Under the pieces are notes generated by a model that saw only the letters and a list, made by a program, of their open reading frames with translations, searched no databases and was not told the origin of the DNA. The position numbers and the translations under genes are program-made. From Escherichia phage fp01: DNA of 64,000 bases. The stretch lies in sequence record NC_048731.1; one strand, written 5' to 3'. This document shows, piece by piece, positions 3,196 to 17,576 of the stretch (its first letter is position 1; each line of letters opens with the position of its first letter).

Positions 3196-3390
3196 TTATA
3201 CTTTTCCATAGTATACGGAAACTGTCTTACCAGTTTGGTTCATGACATATGCTACTTCATCTTCTTTTAAAAAGATGGCTTGATCTACTCCAACTATAGC
3301 CAATCTTTTATTTCTAGGATTAAAGCTTACACTTTTGCCTGTATGAATCTGTTCCCCATTCTTGGCTGACATTATTTTAATTGTTAACAT
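3196..3390 (-). CDS. hypothetical protein
   Basis: ORF track 64 aa. Confidence 0.4.
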   Translation of the reverse strand: MLTIKIMSAKNGEQIHTGKSVSFNPRNKRLAIVGVDQAIFLKEDEVAYVMNQTGKTVSVYYGKV

Positions 3391-3427
3391 AGCTGCTCCT
3401 AAATTTGGCTATCTCTAGCCCTTTTAA

Positions 3428-3503
3428 TGGTAGTTAGTAGTGGATTTGAACCACTGTAGTCGCTCCGTATGAAGGAGGTGCATAACCACTCTGCCAACTA
3501 ACT
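3428..3503 (-). tRNA. tRNA, anticodon CAT (Met/Ile2 family)
   Basis: cloverleaf read by eye: acceptor AGTTAGT/ACTAACT, T-arm AGTGG-TTCAAAT-CCACT, anticodon loop TTCATAC, encoded CCA. Confidence 0.7.
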
Positions 3504-3599
3504 ATTATGTTTTACTAGACTAAGTAAGTATTCTTTATACTCTTTAGACCAATTAGCTTTTTTAAACTTTCCTGGACGCATAGTCTTAATTCCTAAATT

Positions 3600-3676
3600 T
3601 GGTACTCCGGGAGGGATTTAAACCCCCGATCTCTCGGTTATCAGCCGAGTGCTTTAGATCGCTAAGCTACCGAAGC
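3600..3676 (-). tRNA. tRNA-Ile (anticodon GAT)
   Basis: acceptor GCTTCGG/CCGGAGT (wobbles), D-stem GCTT/AAGC, anticodon stem CTCGG/CCGAG with loop CTGATAA, CCA encoded. Confidence 0.7.
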
Positions 3677-3905: not shown

Positions 3906-4177
3906 GAGGTATATTTAAGTTTACCATCTTTATCTACTTTGATTTCGACTTCCACTCGTGGTACTTGACGAACTACACCATGAATCATCTTATAGTTAAT
4001 AGACTTAGATGGTTCATAATCTTTTGGAAAGACTTGCTTAACCGTTACTACCTTGTACCCATCACGCGGTGTTAGTACAACTACTTGATCACCTTCTTTG
4101 ATTTTCCAAGAGCCAGGAAATTCATAAGTATAGCGTTGACCACCAGTTTGGAACACAACAGAAAGATAACGTTTCAT
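3884..4177 (-). CDS. hypothetical protein
   Basis: ORF track 97 aa; lies directly downstream of promoter 4208-4236. Confidence 0.5.
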   Translation of the reverse strand: MKRYLSVVFQTGGQRYTYEFPGSWKIKEGDQVVVLTPRDGYKVVTVKQVFPKDYEPSKSINYKMIHGVVRQVPRVEVEIKVDKDGKLKYTSCLDELL

Positions 4178-4207
4178 TTGGCTTCCCTCTCATTAATTTA
4201 TATAAAT

Positions 4208-4236
4208 ATTATAGCAATAAATAAGAGAGAAAGCAA
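4208..4236 (-). promoter_or_regulatory. T5-type early promoter (minus strand)
   Basis: plus attata 4208-4213, aagcaa 4231-4236, 17-bp spacer; flanking aatttatataaat block. Confidence 0.55.
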
Positions 4237-4244
4237 ATGAATTT

Positions 4245-4412
4245 TTAATAAAGTTTAGTCACTTCATAAACTATACTACGAGATTCTTTATTACGTTCTA
4301 TTAAATTAGCATATGCTTTTTCAGCTTCATTTTTAGTATTAAAGTCTATAACGTGGGAGGTATTCGCTCTATTTGATTGACTATACCAGATAACTACTAA
4401 CAGTTTAAACAT
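4245..4412 (-). CDS. hypothetical small protein
   Basis: ORF track 4245..4439; start trimmed to an internal Met because the upstream part overlaps the tRNA at 4427-4513. Confidence 0.3.
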   Translation of the reverse strand: MFKLLVVIWYSQSNRANTSHVIDFNTKNEAEKAYANLIERNKESRSIVYEVTKLY

Positions 4413-4426
4413 ACTAGTCCTTAAGT

Positions 4427-4513
4427 TGGTGCTGGGCACAGGATTCGAACCTGCAATGGGATTACTCCTCCTGATTACAAATCAGGTGCATTCAACCATT
4501 CTGCCAACCCAGC
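4427..4513 (-). tRNA. type II tRNA (long variable arm), anticodon loop TTTGTAA; identity uncertain
   Basis: acceptor GCTGGGT/GCCCAGC, T-arm GCAGG-TTCGAAT-CCTGT, variable arm GGA-GTAA-TCC, CCA encoded; loop position 34-36 reads TGT, which is atypical for a type II body. Confidence 0.55.
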
Positions 4514-4521
4514 AGAACCCG

Positions 4522-4686
4522 TTATTTCAACGGGATTTCTTTTTCAATAACAGGAGACTTATCAGTCATGACTGTCATTGCCATTTGTTGTAGAAATTCA
4601 AAGGTGAAGGCTACACGTTCTTCACCAATCTCTACTTCTACACGTTTCTTTTGTTTGTCGATCTTAACTTTTAGGTTATCAGCCAT
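4522..4686 (-). CDS. hypothetical small protein (54 aa)
   Basis: manual translation MADNLKVKIDKQKKRVEVEIGEERVAFTFEFLQQMAMTVMTDKSPVIEKEIPLK; below the ORF-track size cutoff. Confidence 0.3.
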   Translation of the reverse strand: MADNLKVKIDKQKKRVEVEIGEERVAFTFEFLQQMAMTVMTDKSPVIEKEIPLK

Positions 4687-4930
4687 TAGAGATTACAGTA
4701 CTGGTAGTTGGCAGTATTACAGATGAAGCAACAGTGTTTAAATGCTTTCTCCAGTCTAGGTTAAATTGTTTTCGAAAATCTTCATAAGGTTCTTCCGGAT
4801 AAAAGCTAAAACCTCCTTTTTCATCATTCAGGATAACAGAGCCGTCAGTTTGTTCGTATGCTCGGTATGTTTCTCCAATAATAATAACTCGTTTATCGGT
4901 ACTTTTATTACGAAATTCAAAAACGTGCAT
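4679..4930 (-). CDS. hypothetical protein
   Basis: ORF track 83 aa. Confidence 0.4.
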   Translation of the reverse strand: MHVFEFRNKSTDKRVIIIGETYRAYEQTDGSVILNDEKGGFSFYPEEPYEDFRKQFNLDWRKHLNTVASSVILPTTSTVISNG

Positions 4931-12727: not shown

Positions 12728-12789
12728 ATATGTTATGGATGAGTGATCAAAGAGACACACATTTTCTATATACTAGGAGGTGTCAAAAA

Positions 12790-13773
12790 ATGACAGAAGA
12801 AGTAGCTAAGAGTCCTGAGACCGTCGCTAGCGTTGCAGCAGAACTGCACCGTCACGAGGAATCAGATAAGAAAAAGTGGGAGAAGGTCAGAGCCTACGAA
12901 GAAAAACATCGTGAACACGATGATGAAGAAGATGATGATGAACATTGTCATAAATATGGAAAACATAAAATGCAAGAACCAGTAAACGTATTCACTAGTG
13001 GCTTCCCTGGCCTACTGGGTGGTTACCCAGCAAACGCAAGTGCTTTCGGTGGTGAAGGTATGGGACTATTCGGAGCTATCCTAATCGGTGCTCTATTAAC
13101 AGGCGGATTCGGTGGTTTCGGTGGATTCGGTGGACGTGGTGTAGTTGGTGAAGGTACCGCAGTTGATGCAGTACTTCAGAACCAAGATACCGCTAGTATT
13201 CTAGCAGCTATTAACACTACTCGTACAGAAGCTAACCAGGGTACTGGGGCTGTTTTAAGCGCAGTTAACAATGGTTTTAGCCAGACATCCCAAAACCAGA
13301 GCCGTGATACTCAGTCTGTACTAACTACGATCTATGGTACAGGTGCTAATCTGTCTAATCAGATCTGCCAGGAAACTCGCAACGTTATTCAGGGTCAGTT
13401 CGATCTTTCTCGCCAGATTGATCAATCTTTCGCAGCTAACCAGATAGCTCGTGCACAAGATAAGTTTGATTCTGCACAGATCGCTTTCCAGCAGACTTTA
13501 CAAACTAATAACCAGTTTGCCGCTGTTCAGGCTCAGATGTGTGCTAACCAGAACTCTCTGGAACGTCAGATCGCTGAATGTTGCTGTGAACTTCAGACTG
13601 CGATCGCTGGTGTAACTACTGCACGTATCCAGGATGAGTTAGACGCATGTCGCCTACGTGAAGCAATCGCTGCGGGTAGTGGTGCTAACGGTCAGGTAAT
13701 TAATCAAATCGCTTTAAGTCTTGGTGCTATCACTCAGACTCTGGCTGGTCTGCAGGCTAAACTGCCGGCTTAA
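12790..13773 (+). CDS. low-complexity protein: acidic His-rich N-terminus, Gly-zipper hydrophobic segment, Q/N/A-rich C-terminal half
   Basis: ORF track 12730..13773; start placed at ATG 12790 with AGGAGG SD upstream; GLFGAILIGALLTGGFGGFGGFGGRG segment; CCC in ...IAECCCELQ. Confidence 0.6.
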   Translation: MTEEVAKSPETVASVAAELHRHEESDKKKWEKVRAYEEKHREHDDEEDDDEHCHKYGKHKMQEPVNVFTSGFPGLLGGYPANASAFGGEGMGLFGAILIGALLTGGFGGFGGFGGRGVVGEGTAVDAVLQNQDTASILAAINTTRTEANQGTGAVLSAVNNGFSQTSQNQSRDTQSVLTTIYGTGANLSNQICQETRNVIQGQFDLSRQIDQSFAANQIARAQDKFDSAQIAFQQTLQTNNQFAAVQAQMCANQNSLERQIAECCCELQTAIAGVTTARIQDELDACRLREAIAAGSGANGQVINQIALSLGAITQTLAGLQAKLPA

Positions 13774-13794
13774 TATTAAGGGGAGGAGCCCATT

Positions 13795-14211
13795 ATGAGT
13801 AAATATGGTTTTGTAAATAACGGACTTAATCAAAGTATGGGCTCCCAGCAGCCCATTCCGGGTCTGGATAATCCCTACTTACAACAGTTGCAACAGCGTT
13901 TAGCAGAAGCGCAACAGATGCAGCAACAACTCCAGCAAAATCCTGGAAGTGTGAGTCCTATGCAAATGATGCAGCAAATGAGCGGGCAGTCGCAAATGCC
14001 TCAACAAATGCAGCAACAGATGCCACAGCAGCAAGTTCAGCAACAAACCCAACAACCGCAGGTTTCTGCGGAAGGACAGGCAGTACTAGCCCTTTTCGAA
14101 GACTTCGCAAAGACAGAGGATGGGAAGCAGCTTGTATCACTTATGGGTAAGTTTAATAGCTTCTGCCAAAGCCAAATTGCAAAAGCTCAAAATAGTGGTA
14201 ATAACTCCTAA
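13795..14211 (+). CDS. Gln-rich low-complexity protein
   Basis: ORF track 138 aa; SD GGGGAGGAG upstream; QQLQQRLAEAQQMQQQLQQ... repeats. Confidence 0.6.
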   Translation: MSKYGFVNNGLNQSMGSQQPIPGLDNPYLQQLQQRLAEAQQMQQQLQQNPGSVSPMQMMQQMSGQSQMPQQMQQQMPQQQVQQQTQQPQVSAEGQAVLALFEDFAKTEDGKQLVSLMGKFNSFCQSQIAKAQNSGNNS

Positions 14212-14220
14212 GGAGGAATT

Positions 14221-14415
14221 ATGTGTTGCAGAAAATCTGTTTCGTGCTGCCCAATGCCTGTAGCACGTTGTTGCTCTCCAGCAATGTTTACGCAAATACC
14301 GGCGTTCAATCCGTTTGCCTTTAAGCCTACTCTTATCCTGCCCCCTAGAGTAGATTTTCAGTCAAGATTGGCCTCCCGTATGGGTGGTTGCTGTAACAAG
14401 AGTATATGGTTCTAA
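14221..14415 (+). CDS. small Cys-rich protein (CC pairs)
   Basis: ORF track 64 aa; SD AAGGAGGA upstream; MCCRKSVSCCP...RCCSP...GGCCNKS. Confidence 0.5.
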   Translation: MCCRKSVSCCPMPVARCCSPAMFTQIPAFNPFAFKPTLILPPRVDFQSRLASRMGGCCNKSIWF

Positions 14416-14430
14416 AGAACCAAACAATAA

Positions 14431-14466
14431 AGCCCCTAGTCGAAAGACTTAGGGGCTTTTTCTTTT
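14431..14466 (+). terminator. rho-independent terminator (plus strand)
   Basis: hairpin AGCCCCTAGTC-GAAA-GACTTAGGGGCT followed by TTTTTCTTTTT. Confidence 0.6.
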
Positions 14467-14479
14467 TCCTTAAATACAG

Positions 14480-14510
14480 AAAAGCCCGCGCTCTCGGAGG
14501 AAACGCGGGC
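14480..14510 (-). terminator. rho-independent terminator (minus strand) after the SPFH gene
   Basis: hairpin GCCCGCGCTCTCGGAGGAAACGCGGGC with A-run 14480-14483 on plus = U-run on the minus transcript. Confidence 0.55.
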
Positions 14511-14535
14511 TTGGTTCGAAGATTACGTGTAACTA

Positions 14536-15483
14536 TTACTTGTTACGCATATCCATAATCATTTGACCATCATAGCCAGTGCCAACTACAGTCTGAGGTA
14601 CACCACCTTGATATTTCTGAGCACGAATCATCTCAACTTCCAGTTGTTTCCAACGAATCATCTCAGGAGTAATGGTACGTTGCAGTGCGGCGTTAGCTTC
14701 AGCTTCTTTCTTAGCTGCGTACAGTTTAGCATCTGCGTCACGTTCATTAGCGATAGCTTGGTTGTTGCGAGCTTCACGATCAGCTTCTGCTTGTTTAACT
14801 TTCTGCTGAGCTTCTTGTTCAACACGAGCAAGCTCAGCTTTCGCAGCATTAACTTGCTCTTCACGAACTTTGGTATTCTGTACCTGTTCCATGATTACCG
14901 GTGGCAAAGTAATATCCTGAAGGAACACCTGCTTAACTGTGTAACCATATGGGCGCGCATACTCTTCAACTTCCTGTTGAATTGCGGTTTGCAATTGAGC
15001 CTGAATTTTAGCATCAAATAAATCTTGTGCTTTAGGTACAGACTTACCAAACTCACGAATAGTAGACAGTAATTTTTCAGTTACATATTTGTCTAATGCT
15101 TGATCCTGAGTACCTGCATTAATACGGTTAATCGGTGCCTTAGAACCATCAAACTGCAACATAACAGTCAGGTCAACAGTGGATTTAAACTTATCCTGAC
15201 TAGGGACCTGAAGTTTATCTAATTTTAGAGCAATATCTTTAGTACTAAAAGTATCGAAAGAAGCAAAAGGATTTACAATATGAAAGCCGGGTAATACTGG
15301 GCTAGGGTCAACTTTACCCAGGAAAGTCTGGGTTTTAACAGTACCGTCTTGAACAACAGTGTAAGAGTTAAGAGCCAGAACTAAACCTACCAAACCAACT
15401 GCAGCCCCAATACCCCAACGTTTGATATTACGCATTAATTTTTGCTCATAAGTCAGTTCTTTAGTGTTTTTAGTAGCAAACAT
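14536..15483 (-). CDS. SPFH/band-7 (stomatin/prohibitin/HflK-C-like) membrane protein
   Basis: 315 aa; N-terminal TM helix (WGIGAAVGLVGLVLAL), SPFH-like core and C-terminal Ala/Glu/Gln-rich coiled coil (VREEQVNAAKAELARVEQEAQQKVKQAEADREARNNQAIANERDADAKLYAAKKEAEANAALQR). Confidence 0.8.
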   Translation of the reverse strand: MFATKNTKELTYEQKLMRNIKRWGIGAAVGLVGLVLALNSYTVVQDGTVKTQTFLGKVDPSPVLPGFHIVNPFASFDTFSTKDIALKLDKLQVPSQDKFKSTVDLTVMLQFDGSKAPINRINAGTQDQALDKYVTEKLLSTIREFGKSVPKAQDLFDAKIQAQLQTAIQQEVEEYARPYGYTVKQVFLQDITLPPVIMEQVQNTKVREEQVNAAKAELARVEQEAQQKVKQAEADREARNNQAIANERDADAKLYAAKKEAEANAALQRTITPEMIRWKQLEVEMIRAQKYQGGVPQTVVGTGYDGQMIMDMRNK

Positions 15484-15517
15484 ATATTTCCTTTGTTTTA
15501 GTTACAGTTAATAAAAT

Positions 15518-15592
15518 TGGCCGAGGTGACAGGATTCGAACCTGCATAAAGGAATTTAGAAGACTCCTGCCTCTCCCTTAGACTACACCCCG
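15518..15592 (-). tRNA. tRNA-Arg (anticodon TCT)
   Basis: acceptor CGGGGTG/CACCTCG, anticodon stem GGAGT/ATTCC with loop CTTCTAA, T-arm GCAGG-TTCGAAT-CCTGT, CCA encoded. Confidence 0.65.
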
Positions 15593-16094
15593 TTTAAGTA
15601 TTTTTAAGAACTCTCGTAAAAACTCTTAAAAATACAGACGATACCGGGAGAGTCATAAGTCTCACTCATTAAGTATTTCAAGACAAAATACGGTAACGTC
15701 TATTATTTTCCAGTTTAAGTCAGGGTGACTTAGTGGTTATGTCCTGCGGTATATTGAGGACTCGGTTAGGCTTGGGGTCATGACTTCCCGCCTTTTGCTG
15801 CTACTCAACAGGAATTATCGCGAATTACCTGTGCTATTGTGCACCATTAGTGACATCTCTCATGTCAGCATTTCCCACTTTGTGGATAGCTTGAAAAACT
15901 ACTCCGATATGGAGAAAGAACTTCACTATCCTAGAATACCTTCTAAAGTTCTTCTTTAGTCTGGACATAGTTAAATCGTAATAAAACTATTCAGCAGACT
16001 GGTTGGTTAGTCTGGAACCAACTACCGCGTGGTTTAGGCAGTGCGCAACTAACCTCGGAAGCTTTTACATTAAAAGCACCAGTTATCCAGTTCT

Positions 16095-16175
16095 TACCGA
16101 CCGTAGGATTCGAACCTACATCTTCCACCAGTTACGGCTTGATAATACCAATTATACTAGGACGGCAGTGTTACT
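16095..16175 (-). ncRNA. degenerate tRNA-like element (pseudo-tRNA)
   Basis: T-arm GTAGG-TTCGAAT-CCTAC and acceptor GCCGTCC/GGTCGGT are present, but the D-arm is aberrant and no anticodon stem can be drawn. Confidence 0.35.
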
Positions 16176-16389
16176 ACATAAGTGATTTCCACACCCCACT
16201 ATTTATAAATTAGAGAAGAGTTTAGGGGAGAGGTTTCAGACGCCTCATTTTACACGTTCTAGCCACTAACCGGGATTGCCGCCCCCTGTGTACTAGTTTT
16301 ACAACTAACCCACCGACTCTATTCAATGCGCTCCGGTTGGGATTCTGCACTCAGCGTAATCGGCTCGCTGTTCCCTAATTTATGAATAT

Positions 16390-16418
16390 AGTATACAGAA
16401 TTTAAAGGCATTTAGCAA
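16390..16418 (-). promoter_or_regulatory. T5-type promoter (minus strand, -10 TATACT) firing into the ORF-free region 15593-16389
   Basis: plus agtata 16390-16395, tagcaa 16413-16418, 17-bp spacer. Confidence 0.45.
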
Positions 16419-16426
16419 ATAAATTT

Positions 16427-16870
16427 TTAATTAAATTCGCCAGCAATCTGAGCAGCAGTACCACCATCATAACGCCCAGGAAATTCTTCCTTAATCGCTT
16501 TCATCAGCATACCTTTTGTAATTCCAGGGTTTAGCTTAACTAATTCTGCAAAGTATTTACGAATCTCAGTATCAGATAACTGAGGGGGCAGATACTCCTG
16601 CAACCACTTATTTAGAATGTATTCATACTGAGCAGACTGCAAGCTATAACTATCAAGATCTTGACCATGAAGTTTAGCTTTCATCTGGTTAATGCTTTTT
16701 AGTTGAGCTTTGAGATAAGACACAAACTGTTCAGAAGTGATGAAATCTTTATCAATACGCTGAAGATCCCCGATTATGGTCTGATAGCTTTTAGCGATTT
16801 CTTTATCAGAACCATTAAACTTAGAATCCTGCAAAGCTCTGCGCAAAACATCTAAAATATTTTCTTCCAT
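16427..16870 (-). CDS. GatB/YqeY-domain protein
   Basis: 147 aa; C-terminal ...GMLMKAIKEEFPGRYDGGTAAQIAGEFN resembles YqeY/GatB C-domains. Confidence 0.65.
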   Translation of the reverse strand: MEENILDVLRRALQDSKFNGSDKEIAKSYQTIIGDLQRIDKDFITSEQFVSYLKAQLKSINQMKAKLHGQDLDSYSLQSAQYEYILNKWLQEYLPPQLSDTEIRKYFAELVKLNPGITKGMLMKAIKEEFPGRYDGGTAAQIAGEFN

Positions 16871-17071: not shown

Positions 17072-17100
17072 ATTATACGGAAATTTAAGTATTTAAGCAA
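17072..17100 (-). promoter_or_regulatory. T5-type early promoter (minus strand)
   Basis: plus attata 17072-17077, aagcaa 17095-17100, 17-bp spacer. Confidence 0.5.
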
Positions 17101-17108
17101 GTAAATTT

Positions 17109-17576
17109 TTAAGTTTTAGTGACAACAGGTTTATAGAATGTATGTCCCTTAATCTTAGTTGTTTTCTTAAATTTCTTTGTCCAGTAAGGTTTATCTTTAC
17201 CACTATGGAAGTATAGTGCTCCATATGTAGGATCTTGTGGTAAATCAACGTAGTATATCACTCTAGCTAAATTCTTAGCGGTTTGCCAAGCCTCATCAGT
17301 TTTATCAACTTTTGGTCTCTTAGATACCCAAGAGAACTGGTTAGACTGATATACTACTTTACAGTAGGAATCTGGGAATTTACCGGAGTTTACACGGTTT
17401 TTAGTAACATGTGCAATCGCCGTCATTCCCTTTATGCCCTCACCACGACTCTCGAAATAGATATTTTTAGCAATGCAATCTATTTCTTTTGCATCATGCG
17501 ATGCCTGACTACTAAAGCTGAAGGTAAGGGCAGCTACTAAAAGCAAAGCTGCCTTCATTCTTTTTACTCCTGCCAA
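17109..17576 (-). CDS. cell-wall hydrolase, SleB-like (Hydrolase_2 family), with signal peptide
   Basis: 155 aa; N-terminal signal peptide MKAALLLVAALTFSFSSQA; CIAKNIYFESRGEG...AIAHVTKNRV...YCKVVYQSNQFSW conserved blocks. Confidence 0.7.
   Translation of the reverse strand: MAGVKRMKAALLLVAALTFSFSSQASHDAKEIDCIAKNIYFESRGEGIKGMTAIAHVTKNRVNSGKFPDSYCKVVYQSNQFSWVSKRPKVDKTDEAWQTAKNLARVIYYVDLPQDPTYGALYFHSGKDKPYWTKKFKKTTKIKGHTFYKPVVTKT

Follow-up and report, generated by a model that had tools for sequence, protein, structure and literature searches.

The stretch of DNA analysed here, referred to below as the window, comprises 64,000 nucleotides of Escherichia phage fp01 (NC_048731.1) and carries, on the minus strand at positions 14536–15483, a gene for a membrane-anchored SPFH/band-7 protein. 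The window derives from a T5-like phage: positions 13500–16500 show 99% identity to the Tequintavirus isolates Escherichia phage PNJ1902 and Salmonella phage STP-SP2, and matches to this region extend to 445 Demerecviridae-type records, in keeping with the initial annotation, which had called the gene phage-encoded from the letters alone. The open reading frame (ORF) is genuine and is the orthologue of T5.080 of Escherichia phage T5 (NC_005859, YP_006908). In the Tequintavirus and Epseptimavirus orthologues this gene occupies the same place, between tRNA-Arg/RNAX and the 32.6% nick with its bidirectional terminator, and the linkage of tRNA-Arg to the SPFH gene is kept across T5-like records. 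The window and T5 proteins share 95% amino-acid identity and show no material difference. The gene and the parts of its product are the following.

14536–15483, minus strand: coding sequence of the SPFH/band-7 protein, the T5.080 orthologue (315 residues plus stop, ATG start)
15489–15493, minus strand: ribosome-binding site AAGGA, read directly from the sequence, with a 5-nt spacer to the ATG
15415–15483, minus strand: residues 1–23, basic N-terminal tail with six Lys/Arg and two Asp/Glu, poorly conserved in the family and predicted to be cytoplasmic
15361–15414, minus strand: residues 24–41, predicted single transmembrane signal-anchor helix, without cysteine or lipobox (hydropathy, cysteine count, AlphaFold2)
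14908–15360, minus strand: residues 42–192, alpha/beta SPFH domain (Pfam, AlphaFold2, Foldseek, alignment invariants)
14674–14901, minus strand: residues 195–270, predicted 76-residue "wall" helix (CC1), rich in Ala, Glu, Gln and Lys (AlphaFold2, composition)
14539–14667, minus strand: residues 273–315, predicted second helix (273–290) and conserved C-terminal segment (AlphaFold2, alignment)

Membership of the protein in the SPFH superfamily is firm. The Pfam Band_7 profile (PF01145), the search by which the initial annotation had proposed to check its SPFH-like core, matches residues 52–225 with an E-value of 2.5e-17 and 63.9 bits against a gathering score of 23.6, and PHROG 200 matches the protein end to end (residues 7–314, E=1.5e-85). 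An AlphaFold2 monomer model built from a 25-sequence alignment, with a mean predicted local distance difference test score (pLDDT) of 80, reproduces the SPFH fold and places a transmembrane helix at residues 12–38, an alpha/beta domain at 41–192, a single long helix at 195–270, a further helix at 273–290 and two short C-terminal strands of low confidence. Hydropathy likewise yields one N-terminal hydrophobic helix (residues ~24–41, Kyte-Doolittle 1.81), and a hydrophobic N-terminal segment is predicted in 119 of 120 close homologues; residues 206–270, of which 72% are Ala, Glu, Gln, Lys or Arg, contain neither Pro nor Gly. The N-terminal transmembrane helix and the long Ala/Glu/Gln tail first read from the letters are hence upheld, the former as a prediction. 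Within the SPFH domain the motifs VPSQDKxK, EFGK, AQDLF and QDITLP are invariant in the family, and many residues of the C-terminal segment GGVPQTVVG...MIMDMR are invariant too, although its pLDDT in the monomer model is low.

Comparison of the model with the Protein Data Bank (PDB) through Foldseek gave a probability of 1.00 to more than 30 solved SPFH chains, and the top matches are all full-length cage-forming SPFH proteins, aligned over ~290–305 columns at no more than 20% identity. They run from erlin-1/2 (E=1e-14) through prohibitin (5e-13), HflK/C (4e-12), stomatin (9e-12) and QmcA (3e-10) to flotillin (2e-8), with the major vault protein as a lower-ranked match. Together with the Band_7 profile and the predicted fold, these matches back the earlier description of a membrane-anchored, scaffold-type protein. 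By sequence, the nearest solved protein is QmcA (E=1.9e-6 with the single sequence, 8.7e-7 with a profile), followed by prohibitin-2 and prohibitin-1. A profile of the phage family run against PDB sequences reached QmcA and the prohibitins, but not HflK or HflC at E<0.01, and none of the NCBIfam models, those for HflK and HflC included, matches the protein. The likeness to HflK/C or stomatin put forward at the outset therefore stands as a full-length structural match; in sequence the protein appears closer to QmcA and prohibitin than to HflK/C, and membership in the HflK/C families is not supported by these searches.

Several product names attached to this gene are at odds with the protein that it encodes. 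The labels "membrane protease", "ion transporter" and "recombination-related exonuclease" found in individual records have no supporting domain, Pfam having returned Band_7 only, and a PHROG "protease" match is marginal (E=1e-3) and lies within the coiled coil. Similarity to defence or anti-defence proteins was also rejected, since no PADLOC defence model matches at E<=0.01. The name "lipoprotein", given by RefSeq and PHROG 200 and repeated in many records, might suggest a protein like Llp, the receptor-blocking lipoprotein of T5, and some distant family members do carry a lipobox, but for the window protein the chance that it applies is vanishingly small. The protein contains no cysteine at all, which makes lipid modification impossible, and 114 of the 120 close homologues likewise lack any cysteine. 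A strict lipobox occurs in none of these 120, and a relaxed pattern, applied also to the wider family, is found in one close homologue (P0114, a Morganella phage protein) and in 16 distant representatives. The anchors of T5.080, RB43 ORF139c and Privateer gp101 are free of cysteine too, those of RB43 and Privateer being plain transmembrane helices. The lipobox-bearing members explain how the misleading name arose; it is unfit for both T5.080 and the window protein, wrong for most of the family, and should read "SPFH domain-containing membrane protein".

The same lipobox-bearing members, together with the distribution of charged residues around the anchor, bear on the orientation of the protein. 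Six Lys/Arg residues flank the transmembrane helix on its N-terminal side and one on its C-terminal side, and an N-terminal excess of these residues is present in 109 of 120 close homologues (mean 2.96 versus 1.23). In 17 distinct representatives of the family, among them a Morganella phage protein 57% identical to that of the window and chromosomal Aeromonas proteins, the anchor is replaced by a signal peptide with a lipobox-type cysteine 2–6 residues before the first strand of the SPFH domain, and such proteins must be exported. From the positive-inside rule and these homologues, we infer that the SPFH domain lies on the periplasmic side of the membrane. This orientation would be like that of HflK/C, prohibitin and erlin, and unlike that of QmcA, stomatin and flotillin.

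The wall helix varies in length in a strikingly regular manner. When measured between two conserved anchor motifs in 112 distinct homologues, with the window protein as reference, its length is offset by −11 residues in one protein, 0 in 100, +11 in 10 and +22 in one, with no other values, and the inserts are duplications of an 11-residue unit. Eleven residues correspond to three helical turns, and the wall helices of SPFH cages pack laterally against their neighbours; steps of 11 residues would hence preserve the face and register of a laterally packing helix. Furthermore, few parts of the protein are as well conserved in the family as the C-terminal 45 residues, which, though unstructured in the monomer model, may serve as a cap between subunits. 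By analogy with the solved cages, a ring-forming assembly is probable.

The transcriptional setting of the gene is made up of the following elements.

16390–16418, minus strand: predicted sigma-70 early-type promoter, TTGCTA-17 nt-TATACT (promoter scan; aligns to T5 promoter P16-17)
15593–16383, minus strand: non-coding leader equivalent to T5 rnaX, ~790 nt, with an approximate 5' end and no ORF of note (T5 annotation, alignment)
16095–16166, minus strand: tRNA-like element in the RNAX leader (Rfam tRNA, 35.5 bits against a gathering score of 29)
15597–15636, minus strand: AT-rich, perfect 17-bp hairpin directly 5' of tRNA-Arg, without a U tract (RNA folding; identical in T5)
15518–15592, minus strand: tRNA-Arg, anticodon UCU (ARAGORN; Rfam, 49.3 bits)
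14482–14512, minus strand: first downstream hairpin, with a 12-bp GC-rich stem and a U-rich tail (−20.7 kcal/mol, z=−3.3; terminator scan, RNA folding)
14429–14459, both strands: second hairpin, a bidirectional intrinsic terminator with T-runs both ways (z=−4.7 on the plus strand, −3.9 on the minus strand; folding, T5 and HdH2 annotation)

As read from these elements, the SPFH gene is the 3'-terminal and sole protein-coding cistron of a putative promoter-RNAX-tRNA-Arg-SPFH unit. The −10 box of T5 promoter P16-17 is TATAAT, where the window has TATACT. The motif AAAAATTTATTTGCT, which represents the upstream half of the early T5 promoters familiar from expression vectors, occurs exactly at 16414–16428, and 20 times in the window at no more than two mismatches, against 0.9 occurrences expected. 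The tRNA-Arg(UCU) gene ends 34 nt upstream of the SPFH start codon. Dependence of the SPFH gene on this co-transcribed tRNA was considered and rejected: all 14 of its Arg codons are CGT or CGC, with not one AGA or AGG, which make up 28% of Arg codons in the long ORFs of the window.

The strong terminators that the initial annotation had placed on both sides of the gene are accounted for on the downstream side only. There, two hairpins follow the gene. The first is terminator-like for the SPFH transcript, and its stem is kept relative to T5 through compensatory changes in the alignment; the second, whose equivalent is labelled in the T5 reference as an [quoted passage not shown], is common to the SPFH gene and the convergent plus-strand genes at 12730–13773 and 13795–14211. 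On the 5' side, a terminator scan found nothing on the strand of the gene, which is therefore not insulated on both sides, and the structured elements present are the tRNA-Arg and the AT-rich hairpin at 15597–15636. The latter is not a canonical terminator, because it lacks a U tract, and may instead be an RNA-processing signal; it is probably what had been taken for the upstream terminator. In the T5 reference, the major single-strand nick at 32.6% lies between the bidirectional terminator and the SPFH gene, and the sequence GCGC at 14488–14491, the T5 32.6% nick consensus, is conserved inside the first hairpin. The leader itself, annotated in T5 as a "stable RNA with unknown functions", has a core that includes the tRNA-like element and is ~100% identical to T5 over ~290 nt, while the DNA of the SPFH gene is only ~91% identical. 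This element is missed by ARAGORN and appears in other records as tRNA-Ser, tRNA-Sec or tRNA-OTHER. Compared with T5, the window carries a 147-nt insertion at ~16217–16363 (minus strand), close behind the point at which transcription of the unit is predicted to begin, and an 87-nt T5 segment is absent further downstream, near 15715; Rfam gave no significant family for either region.

The SPFH gene was found by tblastn in 736 phage records. Besides the T5-like Demerecviridae, its carriers are T4-like Straboviridae of the RB43/Miller/Klebsiella type (83% identity from residue 39 on), in which it adjoins rI and tk, Grimontviridae of the Privateer/7-11 type (75%), Aeromonas T4-like phages (63%) and Vibrio phages (23–44%). 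In a neighbour-joining tree, which carries no bootstrap support and is used only qualitatively, the proteins of Demerecviridae, Straboviridae and Grimontviridae fall into one tight common clade. As judged from these comparisons, the gene is shared by three unrelated families of virulent phages at 75–83% identity over the aligned part. An exhaustive profile search among 1.84 billion returned no more than 2,013 cluster representatives at E<=1e-3, which marks the family as a narrow subfamily; SPFH folds as such occur widely among other phages and giant viruses too. Stand-alone chromosomal homologues of 55–60% identity occur in Morganella and Providencia, and more distant chromosomal copies in Aeromonas, Bacterioplanoides and Cetobacterium. 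A prophage origin of the Morganella and Providencia copies was rejected, since they lie in ordinary neighbourhoods that differ between the genera and include decarboxylase, permease, TetR, ABC exporter, racemase and phosphotransferase system (PTS) genes. In RB43 ORF139c (locus L003, positions 3917–4810), the last ~25 residues, ending in …MNYSTRYKVVYLKLSWVLITLAK, diverge from those of all relatives, apparently through a frameshift or an error of sequencing in the conserved C-terminus.

Purifying selection acts strongly on the gene, which is nonetheless dispensable in the laboratory. The ratio of nonsynonymous to synonymous substitution rates (dN/dS) against T5 is 0.06, and the proteins of HdH2 and SP33 are 100% identical to that of the window despite a dS of 0.10–0.13. 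Dispensability rests on two sources. The Epseptimavirus NG_S8 (LC788711; locus L022, positions 3250–3629) carries a natural in-frame deletion that fuses residues ~1–15 to residues ~276–315, and in a genome-wide CRISPRi-ART knock-down T5.080, targeted by seven guides, had a fitness of −4.28 and was scored "Not Fit", like its neighbours (PMC11879866, supplementary file 16). The remnant ORF of NG_S8 reads MFTKNTKELTSDQKV followed directly by IRWKQLEVEM..., with the junction at an I(K)RW/IRW microhomology; a new 66-codon ORF lies between tRNA-Arg and the remnant, and the T5.077 and T5.078 genes are missing as well. Because knock-down produces no fitness defect and an isolate without most of the gene is viable, any role of the protein in lysis or host proteolysis, the functions proposed for it by the initial annotation, is non-essential under laboratory conditions. 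The combination of conservation and dispensability is the signature of an accessory, condition-dependent function.

As a package, the reading that we favour, with a probability of roughly 60%, is that of a homo-oligomeric SPFH ring or cage, made early and facing the periplasm, on the inner membrane of the host. In this model, the sigma-70 promoter would transcribe the gene early in infection together with RNAX and tRNA-Arg. The N-terminal tail of the protein would stay in the cytoplasm, with the hydrophobic helix acting as an uncleaved signal anchor, and the SPFH domain and coiled coil would come to lie on the periplasmic face of the inner membrane. By analogy with solved SPFH proteins of the same architecture, many copies would line up laterally and close into a ring or cage, in which the SPFH domains would sit on the membrane, the long helices would form the wall and the conserved C-termini would close the top. 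Such a cage would fence off a patch of host membrane, along with any protein inside it. Its most likely purpose would be a conditional one, such as to tune, in natural hosts or under stress, a process of the host envelope or membrane, and less likely a core step of replication or lysis. Several points weigh against this model. The oligomerisation, topology and membrane location of the protein are all predictions, and its expression in infection is deduced from promoter and gene context. QmcA, which of all solved structures comes nearest in sequence, is oriented towards the cytoplasm, and the positive-inside rule is a statistical one that 11 of the 120 homologues break. Lastly, some lipobox-bearing homologues have Ser at position +2, which in enterobacteria directs a lipoprotein to the outer membrane, so that the family may lack one fixed location.

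The match to QmcA, the best by sequence among solved structures, would also fit a cytoplasm-facing scaffold of the stomatin/QmcA type, with its N-terminus out and its C-terminus in. Such a topology is very improbable, given the basic N-terminal tail, the family-wide positive-inside bias and the need for export of the lipobox-type homologues. QmcA-type proteins would further be expected with an NfeD partner gene, and none is present in the phage contexts examined: a Pfam scan found no NfeD gene among the window neighbours, and none is annotated in T5, HdH2, RB43, Privateer or phiAS4. Nor is there a second SPFH gene, of the kind that would supply an HflC-type partner, in the window or in the phage and cellular contexts examined, and partners of both kinds were hence rejected. 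This absence also bears on the proposal that the protein mimics HflK/C, its cage capturing host FtsH from the periplasmic side and altering the degradation of membrane or regulatory proteins by this protease. The inferred topology and the overall fold are those of HflK/C, an FtsH-type protease is likewise the partner of prohibitin, the other SPFH cage that faces the exoplasm, and one Vibrio phage homologue is labelled "putative modulator of FtsH protease", a label transferred by similarity. However, HflK/C is an obligate pair of paralogues, whereas a single gene is present here, and neither the family profile, which reaches QmcA and the prohibitins, nor the NCBIfam models connect the protein to HflK or HflC. 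The lipoprotein-anchored members of the family, moreover, lack the transmembrane helix that surrounds FtsH in the HflK/C complex, and knock-down has no fitness effect. On balance, mimicry of HflK/C is unlikely.

A ring that stabilises or repairs the inner membrane, analogous to SPFH proteins linked to flotillin or PspA, or that acts in lysis timing, is a similarly doubtful proposition. It could operate at DNA-injection pores, under envelope stress or upon premature depolarisation by holins or abortive-infection effectors, and the early-type promoter, the restriction of the gene to large virulent phages in the collection searched and the compatibility of a conditional role with dispensability are all in its favour. 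So are the position of the gene in T4-like phages, where it lies within the tk-rI region beside rI, a gene of lysis inhibition, and the link between bacterial SPFH proteins and membrane stress responses (PMC8581546). This support is purely circumstantial: accessory genes in general accumulate in the tk-rI region, the SleB-type hydrolase adjacent in the window shows no specific co-occurrence with the SPFH gene, and the SPFH proteins cited for membrane stress work on the cytoplasmic side, while the phage protein would be periplasmic. A spanin-like protein, suggested by the combination of a type II anchor and a periplasmic coiled coil, was set aside in view of the SPFH domain, the early-type promoter and the lack of an o-spanin partner. 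A bolder extension of the periplasmic cage model, which we regard as speculative and improbable in its full form, is that a homo-oligomeric SPFH cage, which virulent phages would produce early and which would have moved horizontally among three unrelated families, encloses a specific host membrane machine, FtsH or another envelope protein, and thereby reprogrammes envelope proteolysis or protects the membrane, with a gain only in natural hosts, under stress or in the face of defence. If this were true, a client would for the first time be defined for a viral SPFH protein, and a virus that deploys its own membrane-microdomain cage would be without precedent.

Set beside known systems, the phage protein shares with the HflK/HflC-FtsH complex of E. 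coli (PDB 7WI3, 7VHQ, 9CZ2) a transmembrane anchor, an SPFH domain, a long wall helix and a C-terminal cap, as well as the predicted periplasmic orientation and a full-length structural match, but differs from it in its low identity (at most 19%) and in being the product of a single phage gene instead of a heterodimeric pair. The cages of prohibitin PHB1/PHB2 and erlin1/2 (PDB 8RRH, 9O9Z, 9VVJ, 9O9U) are the best structural matches, with E-values from 1e-14 to 5e-13. They share type II anchoring and a cage on the non-cytoplasmic face, which for the phage protein is a prediction, and weak but significant sequence similarity extends to PHB2 and PHB1, some relatives being named "prohibitin family" or "PHB domain"; unlike the phage protein, however, these are eukaryotic organelle proteins that form hetero-oligomers of two paralogues, and identity is 15–20%. 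In the QmcA-YbbJ (SPFH-NfeD) system of E. coli (PDB 8Z5G), QmcA is the closest solved protein by sequence (E~1e-6), has a similar length and forms a homo-oligomeric cage, but it is turned towards the cytoplasm and has an NfeD partner encoded alongside it, whereas the phage protein is predicted to be periplasmic and has no NfeD neighbour. The same subfamily includes the chromosomal SPFH genes found in Morganella, Providencia and Aeromonas (46–60% identity), which have the same length and architecture and likewise no partner gene; they differ in being cellular genes in metabolic neighbourhoods, and the Aeromonas copies have a lipobox-type signal peptide in place of the transmembrane anchor.

SPFH cages have been understood structurally only recently, and their clients are known in few cases. 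The SPFH identity of the gene is already known: the T5 annotation has had the gene since genome sequencing, many GenBank records already read "SPFH domain / band 7", and the SPFH domain of the T4-like orthologues 44RR ORF098c, Aeh1 ORF064c and RB43 ORF139c was tabulated in 2006 (PMC1524935). A literature search found no experimental study of a phage or viral SPFH protein, and a genome paper describes SPFH function in bacteriophages as "poorly understood" (PMC7760394). The present analysis adds the argument for a periplasmic orientation, the hendecad-quantised wall helix, the sharing of the gene across phage families and its cellular relatives, the correction of the "lipoprotein" label, the anatomy of the transcription unit and the collected evidence of dispensability. 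With a single-cistron, non-essential and strongly conserved gene common to several phage families, T5 offers a tractable model, and T5.080 an entry point to what a virus gains from its own membrane scaffold.

Among the neighbouring genes, a SleB-type cell-wall hydrolase is encoded at 17109–17576 on the minus strand (Pfam Hydrolase_2, E=4e-25), with the N-terminal signal-peptide-like sequence MAGVKRMKAALLLVAALTFSFSSQAS. It is presumably not the canonical T5 endolysin, and may be an exported early muralytic enzyme. An early-type promoter motif at 17096–17110 overlaps the 3' end of the hydrolase gene and probably drives the next downstream unit. A functional link between hydrolase and SPFH gene, which lie within ~2 kb of each other in T5-like phages and Privateer, was considered and rejected, because phages of many groups carry the hydrolase (1,396 records), with no specific co-occurrence. 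Like the SPFH gene, it was scored "Not Fit" in the CRISPRi-ART screen (PMC11879866). T5.076, a neighbour of the SPFH gene named "DNA primase" in RefSeq, is listed as an anti-defence gene that "subverts retron-mediated defense" and scored "Semi-Fit" (PMC11879866, supplementary file 8), so that the region of the SPFH gene holds at least one host-interaction gene. The convergent plus-strand genes at 12730–13773 and 13795–14211 correspond to T5.077 and T5.078 (PHROG 8119 and 7894) and have no Pfam match. The product of the former combines a His- and acid-rich N-terminus with a glycine-zipper-like hydrophobic stretch, GGFGGFGGFGGRG, Q/N-rich repeats and a CCC motif, while that of the latter is extremely rich in Gln. 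Further along the window, 22 tRNA genes lie on the minus strand between 3428 and 11983, among small ORFs, in an arrangement typical of the T5 tRNA region.

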